A stretch of 64,000 nt of DNA from an uncultured Chloroflexia bacterium. Lineage in GTDB: Bacteria > Chloroflexota > Limnocylindria > Limnocylindrales > CSP1-4. Below the pieces are notes generated by a model. That model saw only the letters and a program-made list of their open reading frames with translations, did no database searches and was not told the origin of the DNA. The position numbers and the translations under genes are program-made. Each line of letters begins with the position of its first letter. The first letter of the stretch is position 1. The stretch is taken from positions 21,742 through 85,741 of the forward strand of contig CAWDCJ010000004.1 in the NCBI GenBank assembly GCA_963800795.1. Reading direction: 5' to 3'. Below are positions 10,038 through 23,985 of this stretch, in pieces.

Positions 10038-10562
10038 TCACCCCGTTTCGCGGTCGCCCGATGCGATCGCCTCCGCGCGCTCGATGAGCAGCTCGAGCGC
10101 GGCGCGCGCGCTCGCTGCCTTGTTCGAGCCGCGGTCGCCGGGCCAGCTGAACCGCCGGAGCTCGACCCCGGCGGCATCTGCCACGGCCACGTACGTGAGG
10201 CCCACCGGCTTGCCCGCCGTCGCCCCGGACGGCCCGGCAATGCCGGTGACGGCAACGGCGAGGTCCGATCGAAGGCGTGCCCGTGCCCCCGACGCCATGG
10301 CGCTGGCGACCTGCGCGCTCACCGCCCCGTGCTGGCCGATCACGCTCGCCGACACGCCCAGGAGCGCCTCCTTGGCGTCGTCCGAATAGGCGACAACCCC
10401 GCCACGGAGATAGCCCGACGCGCCGGGCACGTCCGTCAGCGCGTCGCCGATGCGCCCGCCCGTGCAGGACTCGGCCGTCGCGACGGTGAGGCCGGCCGCC
10501 AGGCAGATCAGCTGGAGCCGTTCGGCGAGCGCGCGCAGGTCCGGCTCAGGCCACGCTCGCGC
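10038..10562 (-). CDS. CinA C-terminal domain protein / nicotinamide-nucleotide amidohydrolase PncC-like; no canonical start codon in frame
   Basis: ...LRALAERLQLICLAAGLTVATAESCTGGRIGDALTDVPGASGYLRGGVVAYSDDAKEALLGVSASVIGQHGAVS... is the PncC/CinA-C signature. The frame opens at the rodZ stop (10563-10565). There is no ATG/GTG/TTG before the conserved TAESCTGG. GTG 10428-10430 would truncate the domain. Confidence 0.7.
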   Translation of the reverse strand, partial: ARAWPEPDLRALAERLQLICLAAGLTVATAESCTGGRIGDALTDVPGASGYLRGGVVAYSDDAKEALLGVSASVIGQHGAVSAQVASAMASGARARLRSDLAVAVTGIAGPSGATAGKPVGLTYVAVADAAGVELRRFSWPGDRGSNKAASARAALELLIERAEAIASGDRETG

Positions 10563-11940
10563 TCACGTCGTCCGGTCCGTGCGCTTCGGCGGCGCCGGCG
10601 GCTGGAAGAGCCACGTCTCCGGCGAGCCACCCTTCCCCAGGGCACCCAGGCTCGTCCCGTTGAGGGTATAGAACGTCACCCCGGCGTTGCCCGTTCGAAC
10701 CTCGACGGACGTGGTGCCACTGAACGTGAGGGTCTGGCCGTCGTTGACGAGGAGCCCGCCGCTCCCGGTCGTCGGCGACACGATCGCCGTCGACCCAGAC
10801 CTTGAGCCAGGCCCGCCCACCCTTCACGTCCACGACGACGTTCACGCCCTGGTAGACGACGGTCACGCTGCGGGTCAGCGTGGTCGTCATGCCCTGGTCA
10901 TTCTTGGCGACGATCGAGATCACCCAGCGACCGGTTGTCAGGTCCAGGTTGGCCGCGAACGACCCATCGTCGGCGGGCGCGACCACGATCGGTGCGGGAG
11001 GCGCGGGCGTCGTCGTCGCCGAGGGCGCAGGCGCCTCGCCGGGCGCCTTGCCCGCGAACGCGGCGCTGATGTCCACGCTGGTCGCGTCGGTGGCGTCACC
11101 GGTCACGGGGATCGCCCCGTTCTGGAACGTGGCGCCGTCCGCGGGCGAGCCCACGGTCAAGGTCGGGGCGACCACCGGGTTGAACGGGACGGTGATCAGG
11201 AGCTCGACCGGGTGCTCGGCGGCCTTCCCGGTCTTCGGATCCACCGCGCTCACGTCGAACTGGTTCCTGCCCCGCCGGAGGTCCACCGTGGCCAGCCAGG
11301 TACCGTCGCCGCCCGCGGTGATGTTGAGCGGGTCGCGACCGGGAGCCGCGATGGTGACGAGGCCACCTGCGATGGTGAGCCCGCGCAGCGTGTACGTCGT
11401 CGCATCCTGTGCCACGTCCGTCACGGCAGTGGGCGGATCGACAACGCTCAGCGGCGGGGGCTCGGAGAAGCGGACCAGCTGGAAGCCGATGTAGGCGAGG
11501 ATCAGCACCACGCCCAGGGTCACGACGGCCGCCACCACGACCCCGGAAGTCAGCACCAACCCTTTCCGAGGCGCGATCAGCGGTCGCGGGACGACGATCA
11601 CCGGCTCGGGAGCATCCGCCGGCGCCTCGCGATGCCACTGGGCGACCGCGTCGTCCGGGTCGATCCCGAGGTACTGGGCGTAGTTGCGCAGGAAGCCGCG
11701 GACGTACACGCCACCCGGCAAGGACGCGTAGTCGCCGCGCTCGAGCGCCGCCAGGTACCCACGCCGGATCTTCGTCTCGCGCTCGGCGCGAAGAAGATCG
11801 ATGCCCTTGGCCTCGCGCGCCGCGACCAGTCGCTCGCCGAGCGGGTCGCCGCCCGCGGTCGCTCTCCGATCCGCGATCGGGTCGCGGTCGTGCTCGGGCC
11901 CCGCCGGGCGAGCATGGTTGCGCGTGGTCACCCGTCGTCC
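10563..11940 (-). CDS. rodZ: RodZ-like cytoskeleton protein (XRE-type HTH - TM - Ig-like region - DUF4115); 1-bp frameshift near 10793
   Basis: GTG ~11938-11940. LGERLVAAREAKGIDLLRAERETKIRRGYLAALERGDYASLPGGVYVRGFLRNYAQYLGIDP is the RodZ HTH. TM helix LVLTSGVVVAAVVTLGVVLILAYIGF. C-terminal WLKVWVDGD | VSPTTGSGGLLVNDGQTLTFSGTTSVEVRTGNAGVTFYTLNGTSLG is the DUF4115 motif, in the frame of ORF 10563..10820. Position after ftsK and before cinA matches the conserved order. Confidence 0.7.
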
Positions 11941-14285
11941 CCATCGTCGGCGTCGGGCGGGGCGACGACGCTGCTCGGCCTCGCGCCGCAACACCTGCCG
12001 CGCGTTCGAGCCGTCGAACGCCCCGATGTAACCCCGCGCCTCGAGCTGGTCGATGATCCGCGCCGCCCGGGCATACCCGATCTTGAGCCGCCGCTGCAGC
12101 AGCGACGCCGAGGCGCGGTCGTACTCCTGCACGACGCCCACGGCATCCCGCAGGAGCCGGTCCGCGTCGTCATCCGCGAGGTCGTCGACCGACCCGGTGG
12201 AGTCCTCCTCGTCCTCGATGATCCCCAGGTCGTAGTGGGGCTCAGCCTCGGCCCGCCAGTGGGCCGTGACCGCCCGGATCTCCCGGTCCGCCACGAAGAC
12301 GCCCTGCAGGCGGATGGGGCGCGGCAGGTCGGACGGCTGGAAGAGCATGTCGCCGCGACCGATGAGGTCCTCTGCGCCGGGCGCGTCCAGGATCGTCCGG
12401 GAGTCGATCTGGGAGGCCATGGCGAAGGCGATCCGGCTGGGGAAGTTGGCCTTGATCAGGCCCGTCACGACGTTGACCGATGGGCGCTGCGTGGCGAGGA
12501 CCAGGTGGATCCCGGTCGCGCGCGCCTTCTGGGCCAGGCGGACGATCGGGTCCTCCACGGTCCGGCCGTCGCGCATCATCAGGTCGGCCAGCTCGTCCAC
12601 GATGATCACGATATAGGGCAGCCGATCGGTGGGATCGGCCCGCGTCTCGTTGTACGAGTCGATGTTGCGGGCCGTGGCCCCGGCGAACTTCCGGAAGCGC
12701 ATCTCCATCTCGCTCACCGCCCACTTGAGGGCGGCGCGGGCGCGGTCGACCTCGGTGATGACGGGGACCAGGAGATGGGGCATGCCGTTGTAGTCGGCGA
12801 GCTCAACGCGCTTCGGGTCCACCAGGATGAGCCGGACCTCCTCCGGCGTCGCCCGCATGAGCAGGCTGGTGATGAGGGCATTGACCATGACGCTCTTGCC
12901 GGAGCCGGTGGCGCCCGCGATCAGCAGGTGCGGCATCTTCGCCAGGTCCGCCGCGCGGGCATGACCTGCCACGTCGCGTCCGAGGGCGAAGGCGATCTTC
13001 GACGGGATCGCGGCGACCTCGGGATCCTCCAGGATCCGCCGGATCGCGACCACGTTGAAGTCCATGTTGGGGATCTCGAGCCCCACCACCGTCTTGCCCG
13101 GGATCGGCGCCTCGATCCGGATCGTGCGGGCGGCAAGCGCCATCGCCAGATCATCCGCCAGCGCCTCGATGCGGCTGACCTTGATCGACGGGTCGGGCTC
13201 CACCTCGTATTGCGTCACGACGGGGCCGGCGTTCCAGCGCGTGACCCGGCTGGGGATGTTGAAGCTGGCGAGCTTGCCCTCGATGATCCTGGCGTTGCGC
13301 GCGTGGTCCATCCCGGCATTCGTCGTGCGCGGCGCCAGGTCCTCCAGCAGGGTCATCGGTGGGAGGCGGTATTCCCGCCGGACCGGCTCGGCGGCCAGGC
13401 CCGACCCGGGAGACCCCGAGCCGATGTCCGCGACGGGCACACGGGTCGCCCCGTTCACGGGGCTCGCGGCCCCGTCGTCCGGGAAGAGCGTCATCCGCTC
13501 CCCGCGAGTGGAGCCGGCGGTGGCCCGGCGAACACGGACGAGACCTGCGCCGGCTGCTCCAGCGGCGACGGGATATCCGGCCGCGAGATCTCGCGTCCGT
13601 TCCTGCCGTCCCGGAGCGTGGCCTTGGCGCCCGGCGGCGACGCGCCCGGCCCGTCCGTTCGAGGGCGACGGGCCTGTTCGATGGCGGCTGCGCCGGCGCT
13701 CGCGGCGGGAGCGGCGAGGGCGCTGCCGAGGTCGCGGGCGCCGCGCCCGAACGGCGCCAGCAGCTCCCGGACCGGCCGGTCCAGGGCGACCACGAGCCCG
13801 GCGAGCAGGATCCCGATGAACACGATGAAGGCGCCGAGCGGGCTCACGAGGCCGTCGACGAACGTGGCGAGCGACGACCCGATGCGGCCACCCGAACGGC
13901 CATCCAGCACGCCGGCCTTGGCGAGGAGCGCGATGAGGGCGAGCGCCGCGAGATACGCGACGGCGGAGCCCAGCAAGGTCCGGGGCCAGCCCGCACGCAC
14001 ACCCCCCGACCGCTCCAGCCAGAACCCGAGGCCGATCAGGACGAGCGGAAGCAGCCAGCGGCCGGACCCGAACCATGGCGCGATGACGTTCAGGATCCAG
14101 TCCGTCAGCGCTCCCCGGCCCTGGAACACGAGCCCGATGAGGATCACGGCCCCCAGCACCATCAGGACGACCGCCACGAGCGAGCGCGTGACGTCGGGTG
14201 AGAGGCGCGGCATCCGCGGGACCGACCCTCGGCGGGTGGCCCGCGTCCGCGACCGGGCGGCAGGGGGACGTCGGCGCGTCGCCAC
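11937..14285 (-). CDS. ftsK: DNA translocase FtsK/SpoIIIE; frameshifted near 13493 and again near its 3' end
   Basis: 4-TM N-terminal domain in ORF 13491..14285. Motor domain lies in the long 10546..16245 frame: PHLLIAGATGSGKSVMVNALITSLL (Walker A), ...IIVDELADLM, LVLATQRPSVNVVTGLIKANFPSRIAFAMAS, and the gamma domain LLQRRLKIGYARAARIIDQLE. In the raw frame it reads through into rodZ. A +2-frame TGA overlaps the rodZ GTG (GTGA), suggesting a terminal frameshift. Confidence 0.8.
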
Positions 14286-15969
14286 CTAGACCTCGACGAC
14301 GACCGGGAAGACCATCGGTCGCCGCTTCGTCTGCTCGTACAGGAACCGGGAGACGCCATCCTTGATCTGGCTCTTGAGAAGGCCGACCTCGCTGATGTGG
14401 TCGCCCGGATTCTCGATGGCCGCCACCACCCGACGCACGGCCTCGGCCATGATGGGGTCCTTCTCGTTGAGGTGGACGAAGCCGCGGGTGATGATCTCGG
14501 GCTGCCCGACGACGCTTCCCGTCTGCTTGTCGACCGTCACGACGACCATGAACATCCCGTCGTTGGCGAGCGCCTTGCGGTCGCGCAGGACGATCTCGCC
14601 GACCTCGCCGACGGACAGCCCGTCGACGTAGACGTAGCCCGCGGTCACCGGCTGGCCCCGGCGCCCGGACCCGTCGGCCAGGATCTCGATGGGGGTCCCG
14701 TTCTCGATGATGTAGACGTTCTCGGGCGCAACCCCGGTCTCGATCGCCAGGCGCCCGTGCTGGACCTGCATCCGGAACTCGCCGTGCATCGGGATGAAGT
14801 GGCGCGGCTTGGTGAGGCCGAGCATCAGCTTGAGCTCTTCCTGGCTGGCGTGGCCCGAAACGTGCGCCCGCTTGATCGTGTGGTAGATGACGTTCGCGCC
14901 GGCCTTGAACAGGTTGTCGATCGTCCGGTTGACGTACTCCTCGTTGCCCGGGATGGGGCTCGCCGAGACGATCACCGTGTCTCCGGGCTGGATCTCCACG
15001 AAGCGATGGTCCCGGTTGGCCATCCGGGCCAGCCCGGCCATCGGCTCGCCCTGGGCGCCGGTCGTACAGATGACGAGCTTGCCGGCCGGGACATCGCCGA
15101 TGCGGTCCTTGCCCACGATCCGGTCCGCATCGTAGGTCAGGTACCCGAGGTCGCTCGCGACCCTGAAGTTCTGCTCCATCGAGCGCCCGATCACGGCGAC
15201 CTTCCGGTCGAAGCTGGCCGCCGCGTCGAGGACCTGCTGGACCCGGGCGATGTTGCTGGCGAAGGTCGCCACGATCACCCGGCCGTCGAGCGGCTCCATG
15301 ATCTCGCGAAATGCCTCGCCGACCGTCCGCTCCGACGGCGTGTAGCCCGGGTTCTCCGCCCTGGTCGAGTCCGAGAGGAGACAGACGACGCCCTCCTCGC
15401 CCAGCTTGGCCAGGATGTGGAAGTCCGACAGCCGGCCGTCGACCGGGTGTGTGGTCGAACTTGAAGTCGCCCGTGTGCACGACGACGCCAACCGGCGTGC
15501 GCAGCGCGATCCCCATCGCGTCGGGGATGGAGTGGCCGATCCGGAACGGGACCACGGTGAAGGGCCCGATCGGGATCTCGTCGCCGGGCTCGAGGCCGAG
15601 AAGCGGGTTGTTGTGGAGCTTGTGCTCCTTGATCTTGTTGCCGAGAAGCCCGCGCGCCAGGATCGACGCGTAGACGGGAACGCCGGGGAACTCGGGGAGC
15701 ACGTACGGGAGGGCGCCGACGTGATCCTCGTGCGCGTGCGTGATGAGGAACGCCCGGACGTTGGCGCGACGCTCCTTCAGGTAGCTGATGTCGGGAATGA
15801 CGAGGTCGATGCCGAACATCTCCTCGTCGGGAAACATCAGGCCGCAGTCGATGACGACGATGTCGTCGCCGTACTCGAAGACGTACATGTTCTTGCCGAT
15901 CTCGCCCACGCCCCCCAGGGGGATGATGCGAAGCGGCTGGTCGTTGGTAGCGGGTCTCTGGCTGGTCAT
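14286..15969 (-). CDS. rnj: Ribonuclease J (metallo-beta-lactamase/beta-CASP RNase); 1-bp frameshift near 15441-15450
   Basis: ATG 15967-15969 (MTSQRPATNDQPLRIIPLGGVGEIGKNMYVFEYGDDIVVIDCG...ITHAHEDHVGALPYVL...HTGDFKFDHTP) is in the long frame. It continues VDGRLSDFHILAKLGEEGV...HVSGHASQEELKLM...PMHGEFRM in ORF 14286..15491. The junction sits at a cccgg homopolymer. Confidence 0.85.
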
Positions 15970-15973
15970 GGCC

Positions 15974-16675
15974 TCACGTGAACAGGGTGAGTTGATCTGG
16001 CTCGGGTGATCGGGCCGGCGGGTCGACCGGCGCCGGGCCGCCTTCGGGGGTCGTGGCAGGCGGGGTCGCCGCGGCGCCGTCGCGCGACCGCCGGGCATCC
16101 TCGAGGGCCGCCGGGATGCGCGCCATATCCTCGAAGCTCGCGGTCTCGATCGCCGCCGCCCGGAGAGCGGCCGCGGGATGGTACAGGGCGAAGACATGGG
16201 CGCGGGCGGCCCCGGTCGCCGGGTCGGCCGGGGCGGCGGTCCCATGCGACCGGCTGATCGTGGTGCCCGGCCGGAACAGGCCCATCGAATGGCGGCCCAG
16301 CGTCACCACGAGGGCCGGATCGATCGCCTGGAGCTGGCGGCGCAGGTAGGGGGCACACGCGGCAACCTCGTCCGGCTCGGGGTCGCGGTTGTCCGGCGGG
16401 CGGCACTTGACGATGTTCGTGATGAAGACGTCCTCGCGACGCCAGCCGATGGAGGCCAGCAGGCGGACCAGGAGCTCTCCCGCTCGCCCCACGAAGGGCC
16501 GGCCCAGGCGGTCCTCGTTGACGCCCGGGCCCTCTCCCACGAGGACGACCTCGGTCATTGGGTTCCCCTCACCGGGCACCGCCCGAGTCCGGCCGGCGTG
16601 GAGCCGGCAGGCGGTGCAGGCCCGAACCTCTTCTGCGATCGCGTCGAGCGCCGCACGGCGTTCGGTGGCGGTCAC
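15974..16675 (-). CDS. Uracil-DNA glycosylase, family 4 (UdgA-type)
   Basis: EVRACTACRLHAGRTRAVPGEGNPMTEVVLVGEGPGVNEDRLGRPFVGRAGELL...ITNIVKCRPPDNRDP is the family-4 UDG signature. GTG 16673-16675 overlaps the asd stop (GTGA). Long P/A-rich C-terminal tail. Confidence 0.8.
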   Translation of the reverse strand: MTATERRAALDAIAEEVRACTACRLHAGRTRAVPGEGNPMTEVVLVGEGPGVNEDRLGRPFVGRAGELLVRLLASIGWRREDVFITNIVKCRPPDNRDPEPDEVAACAPYLRRQLQAIDPALVVTLGRHSMGLFRPGTTISRSHGTAAPADPATGAARAHVFALYHPAAALRAAAIETASFEDMARIPAALEDARRSRDGAAATPPATTPEGGPAPVDPPARSPEPDQLTLFT

Positions 16676-17875: not shown

Positions 17876-20455
17876 TCAGCCCTTGGCCAGGTGGCGCTGC
17901 ATGGCGGCCTTGCGGGACAGGTTGACCCGTCCCTGTCGGTCCACCTCGGTGACCACCACCATCACCTCGTCGCCCACCGACACCACGTCCTCGACGGAGG
18001 GCACGTGGTAGTCGGCCAGCTCGCCGATGCGGACCAGGCCTTCCTTGCCCGGGAGGATCTCCACGAAGGCGCCGAAGGTCATGAGGCGGGTCACGGTCCC
18101 CAGGTACAGGGCACCGATCTCGACCTCGCGGGTGAGGGACTCGATCCAGTGGATGGCCTTGCGGGCGTTCTCGCCGGACACGGCGGCGATCTCCACCATG
18201 CCGTCATCCTCGACGTTGATCTCGGTCCCGGTCTCCTCCTGGATCTTGCGGATCATGGAGCCGCCCTTGCCGATGATGTCGCGGATCTTCTCGGGGTTGA
18301 TCTTGATCTTCGTGATGCGCGGCGCGAAGTCGCTCATCGTGTCGCGGGCGGAGGGCAGGACCTCGAGCATCTTGTCCAGGATGAGCATCCGCGCGGCGTG
18401 GGCCTTCTCGAGCCCCTGCCGGATGATCGCCTCGCTGATGCCGGTCACCTTGATGTCCATCTGAAGGGCCGTGATCCCGTCCCGGGTGCCGGTGACCTTG
18501 AAGTCCATGTCGCCGAAGGCGTCTTCCTTGCCCAGGATGTCGGTGAGGACCGTGAACGTCCCGTCGGGCTCGGACATCAGGCCCATCGCCGCGCCGGCCA
18601 CCGGCGCCGTGATCGGCACGCCGGCATCCATGAGTGCCAGCGTCGAGCCGCACGTGGAGGCCATCGAGGTCGAGCCGTTGGACGTTACGCACTCCGAGAC
18701 GAGGCGGATCACGTAGGGGAACTCGTCCGCGCTGGGGAGCACGGGCAGCAGCGCCCGCTCCGCCAGGTGGCCGTGACCGATCTCGCGCCGGCCCGGGCCG
18801 CGCATCATCTTGTTCTCGCCCGTGCTGTACGGCGGCATGTTGTAGTGGTGGATGTAGCGCTTCTCGGTCTCCGGGCTGATCGTGTCGATCCGCTGGACGT
18901 CCGAGGACGGGCCGAGGGTCGCGATGGTGAGCGCCTGCGTCTCGCCGCGCGTGAAGAGGCCGGAGCCATGCGCCCGAGGCAGGAGGCCGACTTCGACGGT
19001 GATCGTGCGCAGCTCGTCGACGCCACGCCCGTCCATGCGGATCCCCTCGGAGAGGGTCAGCCGCCGAACCGTCTTCTTGTGGACGGCGCCGAACAGGCTC
19101 TTGGAGACCCGAGCCGTTCGCCGCGCTGCATCCAGCTTCGCCTTGGCGTCATCCCTGGACGTCCGGCCCGCGCGGATGGAGTCGGCGATGCCCGCCGTGA
19201 GCGCCTCGAGGCGTCCGGGCAGATCCGCGGCGATCGCGAGGAGCAGGGCGGCCGTTGCCTCGGCATCCGGCAGGGCACGGTGGGCCTGCTTCAGCTCGAT
19301 CCCGAAGAAGTCGGGACAGCTCGCCGAGGGTGTAGCTGGGAAGGTCGGGGTATCCATCGCGCGCGAGCGTGAGCGTGTCGAGGTAGGTGCCCGGCCGGAT
19401 GCGCGTCCCGTCCCCCAGGGCCGCTTCCAGGAACCGATGTCGAAGCCGATGGAGTGGCCGACCAGGGTCGCCTCGCCGATGAACGCGAGCGCCTGCTTGG
19501 CGGCCTCCGCGGGCGCCGGGGCGCCGGCAACGTCCTTGTCCGTGATCCCGTGCATCTGGTTGCCGAAGATCGGCCGGCCCGGGTTCACGAACGTCGACCA
19601 GCGATCGACGACCTTGCCCTTCTTGACCCGGACGGCGGCGATCTCGATCAGGTCCGCCATCTCCGGGTTGGTCCCGGTCGTCTCGACGTCGAGCACCACG
19701 AACTCGGCGCCGGCCTTCGCCTTCTCCGCGAAGTCCAGGACCGAGCCGGTGCCGGCCTCCAGGTACGGGATGCGCTTCGTCTTGCCGACGGCCTCCTGGA
19801 GCTGGAGCTGGAGGTCGATCAGCGGCTGGAGCGCGCGATGCCCGAACAGGATGGCCTCGGCCATCACGGACTCCGGAAGGATCTTCGCGCCCGCCTCGAC
19901 CATCATGATGGCCTCGCGGGTACCCGAGACGATGAGGTCGAGATCGGACTCGGCGAGCTCCGGGATGGTGGGGTTGATGACGAACTCGCCGCCGATCCGG
20001 CCGATCCGGACGGCGCCGATGGGGCCCAGGAACGGGATCTCGCTGATGGTCAGCGCCGCGGACGCGGCGACCGTTCCGAGGACGTCGGGGTTGTTCTCCT
20101 GGTCCGTGGAGAGGACGGTCAGGACGATCTGGACGTCGTCCTTGTAGCCCTCCGGGAAGAGCGGTCGGATCGGCCGGTCCGTCAGGCGGGCGGCCAGGAT
20201 GGCGGCCTCGGACGGGCGCGACTCGCGCTTGATGAACCCGCCGGGGATCTTGCCGGCGGCGTACATCCGCTCCTCGAAGTCCACCGTCAGCGGGAAGAAG
20301 TCCAGCCCCGGTCGGGGCTCGGACCGGTTCGCGGTGCCGAGCACCACGGTGTCACCGTACGTGACGGTGACGGCCCCTCCGGCCAGGCGGGCGAGCTTGC
20401 CCGTCTCGATGGTCAGGGGGCGTCCGCCGAATTCGACGGAAAAGGTCAGGGACAC
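17876..20455 (-). CDS. pnp: Polynucleotide phosphorylase (PNPase) with an inserted DnaQ/PolC-like DEDDh 3'-5' exonuclease domain (residues ~251-410)
   Basis: 859 aa versus ~700-750 typical. RNase PH1 (…[25 protein letters not shown]…), PH2 (…[13 protein letters not shown]…ETQALT…[12 protein letters not shown]…[23 protein letters not shown]…), KH ([12 protein letters not shown]) and S1 ([15 protein letters not shown]) domains are all present. Between EAVGKTK and RMDGRG lies [26 protein letters not shown]...GITDKDV...[17 protein letters not shown]...YLDTLTLAR...[25 protein letters not shown] start with GAAAGGAACG Shine-Dalgarno. Confidence 0.85.
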
Positions 20456-21888: not shown

Positions 21889-22969
21889 TCGGTGCGGCTG
21901 CCCCACTCGGGACCAGCACCTTGTCCGGCACGAGGTGTCCTCCGACACGCCGCGCGATCGCAACCAGGGTCCCGTCCTCGGACACCAGGAGCACGCGTGC
22001 CGCGGCCGGGGCGCTGGGCGCGGGAACGGTGCCGGGCGCGGGAACGGTGCCGGCCGCGGGAACGGTGCCGGCCGCGGGCGGCGCCTGCGCCGGGAGCCGG
22101 CCGGCCTCGCTGACCCAGCCGCCGTGGCCGACGACGAGGAGCTCGTCCGGGCGGAGCGTCACCGTCGGGAAATCCTCCAGCCCGGTCCCGACCGGACGGA
22201 GAAGCGCCGCGAATCGTCCGTTCGCCGCAGCGTCCCGGACCACGTCGAGGCTGATGGCGTCGTCGAGCGTGAACGGTCCCGCGGCCGTGCGGCGCAGGGC
22301 TCCGAGGTAGGCCGCGCTGCCGACCGCCGCCCCCAGGTCGCGCGCCAGCGCCCGCATGTAGGTCCCCGCTGAGCAGGCAACGTCGAGGACGGCCAGCGGA
22401 TGCGCGGGATCGGTCTCGTCCCATCGCTCGAGAGCAAGGGCATGAAAGGTGACATCGCGAGCCGGCAGCACTGGGGTCTGCCCTGCCCGGGCCAGCGCGT
22501 AGGCGCGCCTGCCGCCAACCTTGCGCGCCGAGAACGCCGGCGGCAGCTGGAGCTGTCGCCCCAGGAACCGGGCCAGCGCGATCTCCACGGTGGATCTCGT
22601 GGGGGCCGGTTGATCCACCGGCGTCAGCTCCCCTTCGAGGTCATCGGTCGTCGAGGACGCGCCGAAGCAGACCGACGCGCGGTATGCCTTGCGGGCGCCC
22701 AGGTGGAACTCGACCACCCGCGTCCCCAGGCCCAGGTAGAGGGGGAGCACCCCCGACGCAAACGGGTCGAGCGTCCCGCCGTGGCCGATCCGCTTCGTGC
22801 CGGCGAGACGGCGCACCAGGGCGACGATGTCGTGCGACGTCGGCCCGACCGGCTTGTCCACCACCAGGATCCCGTCAAGGCGCGAGTCGGTCCGCTCGCT
22901 CCGCGGGGTGCGCCCGTGGCCCGGCCGGTCGGAGACGTCCACCGGGGACGGCGTACCGTCGTCCGTCAC
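21881..22969 (-). CDS. truB: tRNA pseudouridine(55) synthase TruB with G/T/V/P/A-repeat insertion near C-terminus
   Basis: LDGILVVDKPVGPTSHDIVALVRRLAGTKRIGHGGTLDPFASGVLPLYLG is the TruB catalytic motif. GTG 22967-22969 overlaps the nrnA stop (GTGA); alternative GTG at 22942. C-terminal AAGTVPAAGTVPAPGTVPAP is encoded by an 18-bp tandem repeat. Confidence 0.8.
   Translation of the reverse strand: MTDDGTPSPVDVSDRPGHGRTPRSERTDSRLDGILVVDKPVGPTSHDIVALVRRLAGTKRIGHGGTLDPFASGVLPLYLGLGTRVVEFHLGARKAYRASVCFGASSTTDDLEGELTPVDQPAPTRSTVEIALARFLGRQLQLPPAFSARKVGGRRAYALARAGQTPVLPARDVTFHALALERWDETDPAHPLAVLDVACSAGTYMRALARDLGAAVGSAAYLGALRRTAAGPFTLDDAISLDVVRDAAANGRFAALLRPVGTGLEDFPTVTLRPDELLVVGHGGWVSEAGRLPAQAPPAAGTVPAAGTVPAPGTVPAPSAPAAARVLLVSEDGTLVAIARRVGGHLVPDKVLVPSGAAAPNA
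22021..22074. repeat. 18-bp tandem repeat cgggaacggtgccgg(g/c)cg x3 inside truB
   Basis: Three contiguous units read at 22021-22038, 22039-22056 and 22057-22074. They encode the A-G-T-V-P-A peptide repeat. Confidence 0.75.
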
Positions 22970-23985
22970 CGCGAGACCGCGCGCGCATGCCGCTCGGCTT
23001 CCGGCAGGACGGCTGCGACCGCCTCGGCCAGCGGCAGCGGGAGCGAGGCGCCGGCGGCCCGTGGATGCCCTCCGCCGCCCCAGGTGCCACACAGCGCGGT
23101 CGCGTCCACGCCCCCGGGCTTCGTGCGCACGGAGAGACGGGTCGCGCCATCCTTCTCCTTGAACAGGAGGGCGATCTCGGCGGTCTCCGACTGCGCGAGG
23201 AGGTCGATGATGCCCTCGGAGTGCTCCGAGCGCGCTCCCGTCGCGGCGAGATCCGCCAGTTCGAGTGTCGAGGCGATCACCAGCCCGCCGGCGTGTGACT
23301 GCAGGCGGGCCAGGACGCGCCCGAACAGCGCCAGCTGGGCATCCGGCTTGGTCCGATACAGCCGCCGGCTGATCTCGGAGAGCGGCGCCCCCGCCTCGAC
23401 CAGCGCGGCCGTCACCTGGAGCGTGCGGGCCGTCGTGTTCGGGTGGGCGAACGTGGCCGTGTCCATCACGATCCCCGCCGCGAGCGCGGCCGCCAGCCTC
23501 CCCTCCCCCGCTGCCAGCGGGACACCGAGACGCACGGCCAGGAGGGCGACCATCTCGCACGTCGCCGCCGCCGCCGGGTCGATCCAGGCCAGGCCACCTG
23601 TGCCGTCATTGCTGGCGTGATGGTCGATCGTCAGGAGGGGCGTATCGGCGAAGAGCGCGGGATTTCGCTCCCGGATCGAGCCGACGCGGCTGAGGTCCCC
23701 ACAGTCGCACAGGACGACCAGGTCGTAGGCGACATCTGGCTCCGGGTCGGTTCGGACGGCGTCGCTGCCGTCCATGAACCGGTAGAGGTCGGGCAACGGG
23801 TCCGCGGCCGCGACGGTCGCCCGCCCACCCAGCGCCTCCACGAGCAGGCCGATCGCGATCGCCGCCCCCAGCGCGTCGGCGTCCGGGCTCTCGTGCCCGA
23901 CCGCCAGCACCCGCCTGGCATTGCGAACGCGCTCCACCACAAGAATGGGGACCGCCTCTGTGAGCGACCCCAGGTCGATCGCCAT
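22966..23985 (-). CDS. nrnA: DHH-family phosphoesterase NrnA-like (nanoRNase / pAp phosphatase)
   Basis: VLAVGHESPDADALGAAIAIGLL...LVVLCDCGDLSRVG...LLTIDHHASNDG...GGGHPRAAGAS gives the DHH and DHHA1 motifs. ATG ~23983-23985 lies just after the rbfA stop. The rbfA-nrnA-truB order is typical of Actinobacteria. Confidence 0.75.
   Translation of the reverse strand: MAIDLGSLTEAVPILVVERVRNARRVLAVGHESPDADALGAAIAIGLLVEALGGRATVAAADPLPDLYRFMDGSDAVRTDPEPDVAYDLVVLCDCGDLSRVGSIRERNPALFADTPLLTIDHHASNDGTGGLAWIDPAAAATCEMVALLAVRLGVPLAAGEGRLAAALAAGIVMDTATFAHPNTTARTLQVTAALVEAGAPLSEISRRLYRTKPDAQLALFGRVLARLQSHAGGLVIASTLELADLAATGARSEHSEGIIDLLAQSETAEIALLFKEKDGATRLSVRTKPGGVDATALCGTWGGGGHPRAAGASLPLPLAEAVAAVLPEAERHARAVSR

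Follow-up and report, generated by a model that had tools for sequence, protein, structure and literature searches.

A predicted DnaQ-type exonuclease domain nested in the helical linker of polynucleotide phosphorylase in Limnocylindria (Chloroflexota)

The polynucleotide phosphorylases (PNPases) of all organisms have been described as sharing a five-domain plan (review, PMC8836086). In the canonical enzymes of known structure (Escherichia coli 3GCM/3CDI, Staphylococcus aureus 5XEX, Caulobacter crescentus 4AM3, Streptomyces antibioticus 1E3P and human 3U1K), a first RNase PH-like domain (PH1) is followed by an all-alpha domain, a second RNase PH-like domain (PH2), a KH domain and an S1 domain. 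The pnp gene described here, carried by a 64,000-nucleotide stretch of an uncultured Limnocylindria bacterium (contig CAWDCJ010000004.1, positions 21,742 to 85,741; this whole stretch is called the window and its own numbering is used throughout), encodes the same domains in the same order and shares with canonical PNPases both the phosphate- and metal-binding residues and the rpsO-pnp gene context. It differs in that the all-alpha domain, which has no such insert in the canonical enzymes, is interrupted by about 155 amino acids (aa) resembling a DEDDh-type 3'-5' exonuclease. A DEDDh insert is absent from all solved PNPases (among them those of E. coli, S. aureus, Caulobacter, Coxiella, Mycobacterium tuberculosis, S. 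antibioticus and human), in keeping with the original prediction made on this DNA, which had declared the architecture unfamiliar among characterised PNPases.

The joint use of a PH-domain ring and a DEDD-type hydrolase is well known in other settings. The eukaryotic exosome pairs such a ring with the hydrolases Rrp6 and Rrp44. In human mitochondria, RNA is acted on by a degradosome that contains PNPase and also by the DEDDh enzyme REXO2, which clears the short RNAs made by a decay machinery that includes PNPase (PMC7261184), and the Caulobacter degradosome recruits PNPase together with RNase D (PMC4245959). In all three cases the ring and the hydrolase belong to one pathway or complex as non-covalent partners (PMC7261184 and PMC4245959 for the last two), whereas the Limnocylindria PNPase has both in a single polypeptide, in three copies per presumed trimer. 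Furthermore, the Exo-9 core of the eukaryotic exosome is catalytically incompetent, whereas the Limnocylindria PH ring is predicted to be competent, and the hydrolases themselves are of different types: Rrp6 and RNase D are DEDDy enzymes and Orn/REXO2 represent another type again, while the Limnocylindria insert is a DEDDh domain of DnaQ type. Orn/REXO2 and RNase T do share DEDDh chemistry and fold with the insert, and the finishing of short RNAs proposed below would be analogous to their role, but the sequence similarity of Orn and RNase T to the insert is much weaker. Orn and RNase T are homodimers with substrate sites built across the dimer, an arrangement to which nothing points in the Limnocylindria PNPase. 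The best matches to the insert, in sequence as well as in fold, are the exonuclease of PolC and the N-terminal exonuclease of DinG, which carry the same Exo I, Exo II and Exo III motifs, including H-x4-D. Their polymerase, PHP or helicase context differs from that of the insert, whose host is an RNA phosphorylase. The PolC exonuclease is likewise nested inside another domain (PHP).

Apart from the insert, the product of pnp is an ordinary PNPase. Its open reading frame (ORF) contains, in canonical order, the Pfam domains RNase_PH (twice), RNase_PH_C, KH_1 and S1, with RNase_T lying between the two PH domains. The NCBIfam PNPase equivalog TIGR03591 scores 934.8 bits (cut-off 525.05) in two matched stretches that flank the insert. 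In E. coli PNPase, S438 and S439 bind phosphate and D486, D492 and K494 bind metal (PMC2723993). Alignment to the solved PNPases shows that the phosphate-binding SNGSTSMAS, the metal-binding motif and PGRREIGHG (RR-x-x-GHG) are all kept, and PH2 aligns with these enzymes over its full length (E 1e-57 to 1e-97). Judged by these alignments, the phosphorolytic site and the PNPase core are intact, as had been claimed in the original prediction for PH1, PH2, KH and S1, and the ring is not reduced to a passive scaffold, unlike the core of the eukaryotic exosome. Among the PNPase family features looked for, the product has all but one by sequence comparison, the exception being the all-alpha domain, which in the family runs unbroken for about 70-90 aa from PH1 to PH2.

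The distance between PH1 and PH2 is 229 aa, compared with about 72 aa in the S. aureus structure 5xex, which agrees with the earlier estimate of a linker of about 250 aa instead of the canonical 90 or so. The solved PNPases align to aa 152-228 and then again from aa 458. As the pieces left on either side of the insert (aa 229-252 and 406-457) add up to a normal helical-domain length, the exonuclease appears to be nested between the all-alpha helices rather than to replace them. The all-alpha family itself (PF03726) gives a weak, below-threshold match, aa 452-477 corresponding to profile positions 55-80 of 81, its last 26 positions. In the AlphaFold2 (AF2) prediction, a helix of about 36 residues (183-218 in the numbering of the module model described below) begins at Exo III and continues into the all-alpha domain. 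This single continuous helix suggests that the exonuclease is fairly rigidly mounted on the helical domain. The helical domain of E. coli PNPase occupies the ring face opposite KH/S1 and forms part of a side pore to the phosphorolytic site, thought to serve the traffic of nucleoside diphosphates (NDPs) and phosphate (PMC2723993). By analogy we infer that the three exonuclease domains of the presumed trimer would decorate this same face, near the side pore. A full-length AF2 model has good confidence in PH1, the helical pieces and the exonuclease domain alone; the predicted local distance difference test score (pLDDT) of PH2 and S1 is about 25 because few alignment rows covered them, and this model was left out of any consideration of inter-domain geometry on account of these poor regions.

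Several independent profiles agree on what the nested domain is. RNase_T (PF00929) matches over its whole model with E 1e-19 and 72.1 bits in the raw ORF (gathering score 24 bits), rising to E 1.2e-28 and 101.2 bits once the reading frame is corrected as explained below. This significant match falls where the original prediction would have been undone by the lack of one (residues 251-410), and the interval of 19200-19730 that it gave correctly brackets the domain as delimited by Pfam (19241-19699). Exo I (D-x-E), Exo II (D) and Exo III (H-x4-D) are all present. The NCBIfam families listed for the middle segment of the protein are the DEDD-exonuclease PRK07883, the DinG exonuclease, the PolC exonuclease and TIGR00573 dnaq, the last reaching 78.7 bits (cut-off 71.5). 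Whole-protein equivalogs stay far under their cut-offs (PolC 126 vs 873, DinG 128 vs 789, dnaQ_proteo 76 vs 222.7 bits), with matches confined to the exonuclease segment. Profile matching to the PDB ranks the PolC exonuclease first (4e-35), before the DinG exonuclease (5e-30), epsilon (1e-18) and RNase T (1e-7 to 1e-10), and no Orn chain matched the insert at E<=1e-3 in this search. By these comparisons the insert is a relative of the PolC, DinG and epsilon exonuclease domains without being a member of those families, and as a DnaQ-type DEDDh domain it falls outside the RNase T/Orn subfamily.

Structure prediction points in the same direction. The AF2 model of a 271-aa module, formed of the insert and both helical flanks, has a pLDDT of 90.7 and a predicted template-modelling (TM) score of 0.86. 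Searched with Foldseek, this module matches the S. aureus DinG exonuclease and the PolC exonuclease (37% identity, root-mean-square deviation 2.4 A over 169 columns), as well as S. thermophilus DnaQ and E. coli epsilon (TM 0.79-0.80, normalised to the target); RNase T ranks after all of these, with a TM of about 0.6 normalised to RNase T. The nested domain is thus predicted to adopt a normal DnaQ-like, RNase H-like alpha/beta fold. The core claim of the original prediction, a PNPase carrying a DnaQ/PolC-like DEDDh domain in its helical linker, is thereby borne out by Pfam, NCBIfam, PDB profiles and AF2/Foldseek alike.

To examine the conservation of this domain we aligned 61 full-length sequences, comprising GTDB loci and the protein P0121. 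D256 and E258 are found in all 61, whereas D339, H392 and D397 are each found in 60, the remaining sequence having a gap at D339; F338 and D339 are invariant in alignment A1. The whole pentad is invariant in a 16-sequence alignment (A2) in which identity over the aligned module falls as low as 39%, and motif counts in 165 database homologues agree. Around these residues the domain is more variable than its host: mean pairwise identity is 70% in the exonuclease domain, 57-63% in the helical flanks and 83-88% in PH1, PH2, KH and S1 (85% in PH1). Nei-Gojobori ratios of nonsynonymous to synonymous substitution (dN/dS) are 0.37 for the exonuclease domain, 0.17-0.21 for PH1, PH2 and KH+S1 and 0.46-0.64 for the helical flanks, figures of relative value only, since synonymous sites are probably close to saturated and skewed by high GC. 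These substitution patterns place the exonuclease domain under purifying selection.

The faster evolution of the domain relative to the PNPase core, together with the proposal that the helical domain it interrupts modulates access to the active site (PMC2723993), could be taken to mean that it is catalytically silent and has instead a structural, regulatory or docking role, for instance in binding nucleotides, 3' ends or a partner protein or in gating the side pore. One would expect the catalytic residues of a silent domain to disappear, while here the five are kept in 60 or 61 of 61 sequences and in lineages as distant as those of alignment A2. Because of this invariance a silent role seems improbable, and the pattern of conservation makes it likely that the domain is active.

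The fusion is not peculiar to this genome. A search with the full-length protein gave, among the matches listed, at least 120 clusters (formed at 90% identity) whose proteins are 796-865 aa long, mostly 857-865 aa, with 81-96% identity to the query. Every one of those listed contains PF00929 along with the PNPase domains, and one of them has 171 members. We also scanned GTDB, taking one genome per species, with a profile of the insert and both helical flanks (271 aa) and retaining the best 80 loci. All 80 match the whole query at 52-82% identity, except for three that are cut by contig ends. Nearly all of these best 80 species genomes are named Chloroflexota, Limnocylindrales, Limnocylindria or Limnocylindrus, and they stem from many projects and assemblers. 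From this distribution, the PNPase-DEDDh fusion is class-wide in Limnocylindria. Three of the loci (L042, L052 and L080) are short contigs carrying a Limnocylindria-type pnp but binned in metagenome-assembled genomes (MAGs) named Patescibacteria, Verrucomicrobiia and Polarisedimenticolia; they are probably cases of mis-binning rather than of horizontal transfer.

Such a distribution bears directly on the authenticity of the gene. The original prediction had allowed that the insert might be a chimeric assembly join rather than part of a real gene. Nothing was found that speaks for such a join. Independent projects and assemblers have yielded the same junctions, in at least 80 species genomes and in at least 120 protein clusters; most clusters keep a length of 857-865 aa, and GC content runs across the insert without any discontinuity. 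A chimera is thus ruled out for practical purposes. The fusion is, on the strength of its recurrence, a real, conserved and clade-wide variant of a known enzyme.

Fusions of this kind seem to be restricted to a single family. Among 1.84 billion cluster representatives, 59 reach E 1e-30, and those that match over both flanks and insert form one family (e.g. P0243, 864 aa, from Limnocylindrus); no independent PNPase-exonuclease fusion outside the Limnocylindria clade was found among the matches checked in this set. The nearest relatives other than PNPases, checked by Pfam, are DnaQ-BRCT, DnaQ-GIY-YIG/UVR (triple-DnaQ) and DnaQ-DinG proteins. Eight representatives from the 50%-identity library (P0255, P0261, P0263, P0264, P0271, P0290, P0315 and P0321) were considered as divergent or degenerate fusions and rejected. 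They are frameshifted translations of indel-rich MAG contigs, in which correct text alternates with out-of-frame stretches rich in R, P and S, and do not count as evidence of domain decay; their presence inflates the apparent diversity of the family. Databases fed by indel-rich long-read MAGs are full of such frameshifted pnp versions mimicking divergent families.

Literature searches found no description of a PNPase-DEDDh fusion. In databases its members are labelled variously by pipelines as "polyribonucleotide nucleotidyltransferase", "DNA polymerase III epsilon subunit family exonuclease" or "exonuclease domain-containing protein". Given this mixture of labels and the silence of the literature, the sequences can be regarded as public but uninterpreted. 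The possibility, raised with the original prediction, that this is a common and already annotated variant is consequently partly right: it is common across Limnocylindria and has been annotated by machine, but no paper describing it was found.

The window's own copy of the gene requires a correction. As assembled, the stretch between Exo II and Exo III (aa 342-382) is out of frame, ending in SASCPD, and the -1 frame gives the proper text. The cause is a pair of mutually compensating single-base indels, one base missing at ~19434 and one extra at ~19311. When pnp is aligned at the DNA level with its nearest intact relative (L001, a Joint Genome Institute (JGI) contig; 89% DNA identity), just two 1-nt indels appear, both unpaired, and the relatives' bases at the two sites read …ATCGGCTTCCTG… and …TCCCGCTTCTTC…. 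The corrected text agrees with every homologue read, with the sole exception of P0123, which is identical to the window ORF. The original prediction had silently corrected these indels: the Exo I, Exo II and Exo III motifs that it listed are in the ORF, but the continuation of Exo II that it gave (...GFL) is absent from the assembled frame.

It might be supposed that the exonuclease domain has truly been inactivated in this strain by the compensated frameshifts, tolerated as only the PNPase core matters. The ORF does remain open across the shifted stretch, and the identical protein P0123 has entries in both NCBI and ENA. The scrambled version is nevertheless carried by a single contig, and pnp is not alone in being affected. 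Comparison of this assembly with a syntenic JGI contig (19 proteins compared) reveals about ten frame breaks in seven genes, pnp included, within 22 kb. The other genes are rseP, nusA, RNase J, ftsK, rodZ and ilvB; their frameshifts are unpaired, and several of the broken genes are normally indispensable. Numerous database relatives from long-read MAGs are likewise full of frameshifts. Moreover, once the frame is corrected, just 2 of the 41 residues enclosed by the pnp indels depart from those of the nearest relative, although the DNA of this stretch is about 85% identical, which is the mark of purifying selection. Genuine inactivation thus has only a slim chance of being correct. Since six other genes within 22 kb also show frame breaks, the indel pair in pnp is, on this comparison, most likely an assembly error and not a sign of pseudogenisation. 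The assembly being prone to indels, any ORF-level reading of the window needs frame checking. The RNase J gene is another instance, an unpaired +1 insertion dividing it into two frames, the N-terminal part sharing its frame with a spurious 1899-aa ORF.

What the composite enzyme does can be proposed in outline. With moderate confidence, and arguing from sequence, we regard it as the housekeeping PNPase of Limnocylindria into which a predicted-active DEDDh domain was ancestrally inserted, making it a dual phosphorolytic and hydrolytic 3'-5' exonuclease, with the frameshifts in pnp being artefacts. According to this proposal, a DnaQ/PolC-type DEDDh domain was inserted in the ancestor of the class between helices of the all-alpha domain linking PH1 and PH2, and each protomer of the trimer would bear an active hydrolytic exonuclease that is Mg2+-dependent and phosphate-independent. 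The enzyme would therefore join a reversible reaction to an irreversible one. Phosphorolysis would release NDPs from RNA threaded through the channel from the KH/S1 face, and hydrolysis would release nucleoside monophosphates at the tethered DEDDh site on the opposite face. The likeliest targets of the hydrolytic site would be single-stranded 3' ends and the remnants of PNPase action, as PNPase leaves a short oligonucleotide product (PMC11572968). Work on such ends and remnants appears to be the most economical role for this site, and would resemble the mitochondrial and Caulobacter pairings described above.

Some observations weigh against a role in RNA decay. The insert is most closely related to DNA exonucleases (PolC proofreading, DinG, DnaQ-BRCT and DnaQ-GIY-YIG), RNase T being a much weaker match (1e-7 to 1e-10), and the B. 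subtilis DinG exonuclease prefers single-stranded DNA, cutting single-stranded RNA only with Mn2+ (PMC12525004). The idea of oligonucleotide clearing is in addition weakened by the presence, four genes upstream of pnp, of an NrnA-like gene that may encode a dedicated nanoRNase.

The first of these points leads to a rival function, in which the exonuclease is active but works in the cell on DNA or on the RNA strand of R-loops, the domain processing DNA 3' ends in repair instead of taking part in RNA decay. The top matches in both sequence and fold are indeed DNA enzymes (PolC exonuclease 4e-35, DinG 5e-30 and epsilon 1e-18, vs 1e-7 or weaker for RNase T), the nearest non-PNPase relatives are the DnaQ-BRCT, triple-DnaQ-GIY-YIG/UVR and DnaQ-DinG proteins, and a UDG-family gene lies two genes downstream of pnp. 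The PNPases of B. subtilis and Mycobacterium smegmatis have themselves been implicated in DNA repair. The DinG exonuclease of B. subtilis, besides favouring single-stranded DNA, degrades the RNA strand of hybrids (PMC12525004). On the other hand, the rest of the neighbourhood (nusA, infB, rbfA, truB, rpsO and RNase J) is devoted to translation and RNA processing. Homology does not fix the substrate either, because DEDDh enzymes frequently cleave RNA as well as DNA. We consider a DNA or R-loop substrate unlikely, though it is the most serious of the rivals to a dual RNA-degrading enzyme.

A bolder form of the dual-exonuclease proposal is that the phosphorolytic ring and the three rigidly mounted DEDDh sites are functionally coupled, forming a self-contained, exosome-like machine. 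A short 3' remnant or a stalled 3' end could be passed via the side pore of the helical domain to the hydrolytic site, or the exonuclease could hydrolytically edit or limit the template-independent tailing carried out by PNPase itself. Such coupling is possible but doubtful; if it did occur, a single enzyme could degrade RNA completely, to mononucleotides, whatever the phosphate supply.

Few RNA-decay enzymes are as conserved as PNPase, and a class abundant in soils and lakes has altered its plan. The second nuclease, of different chemistry, sits in the least understood part of PNPase, a dynamic helical domain next to the pore of the active site. Should both sites be active, the enzyme would be a bacterial single-polypeptide counterpart of the pairings of PH ring and DEDD hydrolase known from the exosome, mitochondria and the Caulobacter degradosome. 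It also offers a natural construct for asking what the helical domain and its pore do, how PNPase remnants are cleared and why phosphorolytic and hydrolytic decay are found together.

Table 1. Positions of pnp, its domains and motifs, and other features mentioned in the text (window coordinates)
Feature	Position	Strand	Basis
pnp, 859 aa including nested exonuclease domain	17876..20455	minus	ORF list, TIGR03591, synteny
PH1, first RNase PH-like domain, aa 1-214	19814..20455	minus	Pfam RNase_PH + RNase_PH_C
All-alpha domain, N-terminal piece, aa 215-250; AF2 helices 210-223, 237-247	19706..19813	minus	AF2 secondary structure; solved-PNPase alignment to ~aa 228
Nested DEDDh (RNase_T/DnaQ-like) 3'-5' exonuclease domain (predicted), aa 253-405	19241..19699	minus	PF00929, PDB profiles, AF2, Foldseek
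Exo I motif, aa 252-261 (D256, E258)	19673..19702	minus	Motif read in ORF as assembled
Exo II motif, aa 331-341 (D339)	19433..19465	minus	Motif read in ORF
41 out-of-frame codons, aa 342-382	19310..19432	minus	Three-frame translation; DNA alignment to L001
Exo III motif, aa 392-402 (H392, D397)	19250..19282	minus	Motif read in ORF as assembled
All-alpha domain, C-terminal piece, aa 411-477; AF2 helices 394-429, 434-448, 452-470	19025..19225	minus	Weak PF03726, AF2
PH2, second RNase PH-like domain, phosphorolytic site intact by alignment	18341..19024	minus	Alignment to solved PNPases
KH (aa 715-772) and S1 (aa 778-849) RNA-binding domains	17909..18313	minus	Pfam KH_1 2.5e-12, S1 6.9e-18
Other frame breaks: rseP, nusA (two), RNase J, ftsK, rodZ, ilvB (two)	~30226, ~27740, ~26990, ~15445, 13200-13800, ~10783, ~9145, ~8721		Syntenic JGI contig
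RNase J gene	14289-15969	minus	
Unpaired +1 insertion in RNase J gene	~15443-15445		
Spurious 1899-aa ORF	10546..16245		
DHH/DHHA1 gene, candidate nanoRNase	22969-23985	minus	NCBIfam (NrnA)
18-nt tandem repeat near the C-terminus of the truB frame	22019-22078		

The genes surrounding pnp follow a conserved order, nusA-infB-rbfA-(NrnA-like DHH)-truB-ribF-rpsO-pnp-asd-UDG-RNase J. The gene thus occupies its housekeeping position downstream of rpsO, in a conserved rpsO-pnp-asd arrangement, with the RNase J gene three genes downstream. The DHH/DHHA1 gene keeps its place between rbfA and truB. Its best NCBIfam match is NrnA (bifunctional oligoribonuclease/PAP phosphatase), at 81.7 bits against a cut-off of 350, and on this similarity it may be regarded as a candidate nanoRNase gene. 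Patterns of sigma-70-like promoters or intrinsic terminators were not found around rpsO-pnp, nor did any Rfam family reach its gathering score on either strand of the whole 64-kb window (1-64000). The truB frame contains an 18-nt tandem repeat of 3.3 copies (97% match), which encodes (AGTVPA)n and may constitute a length-variable linker.

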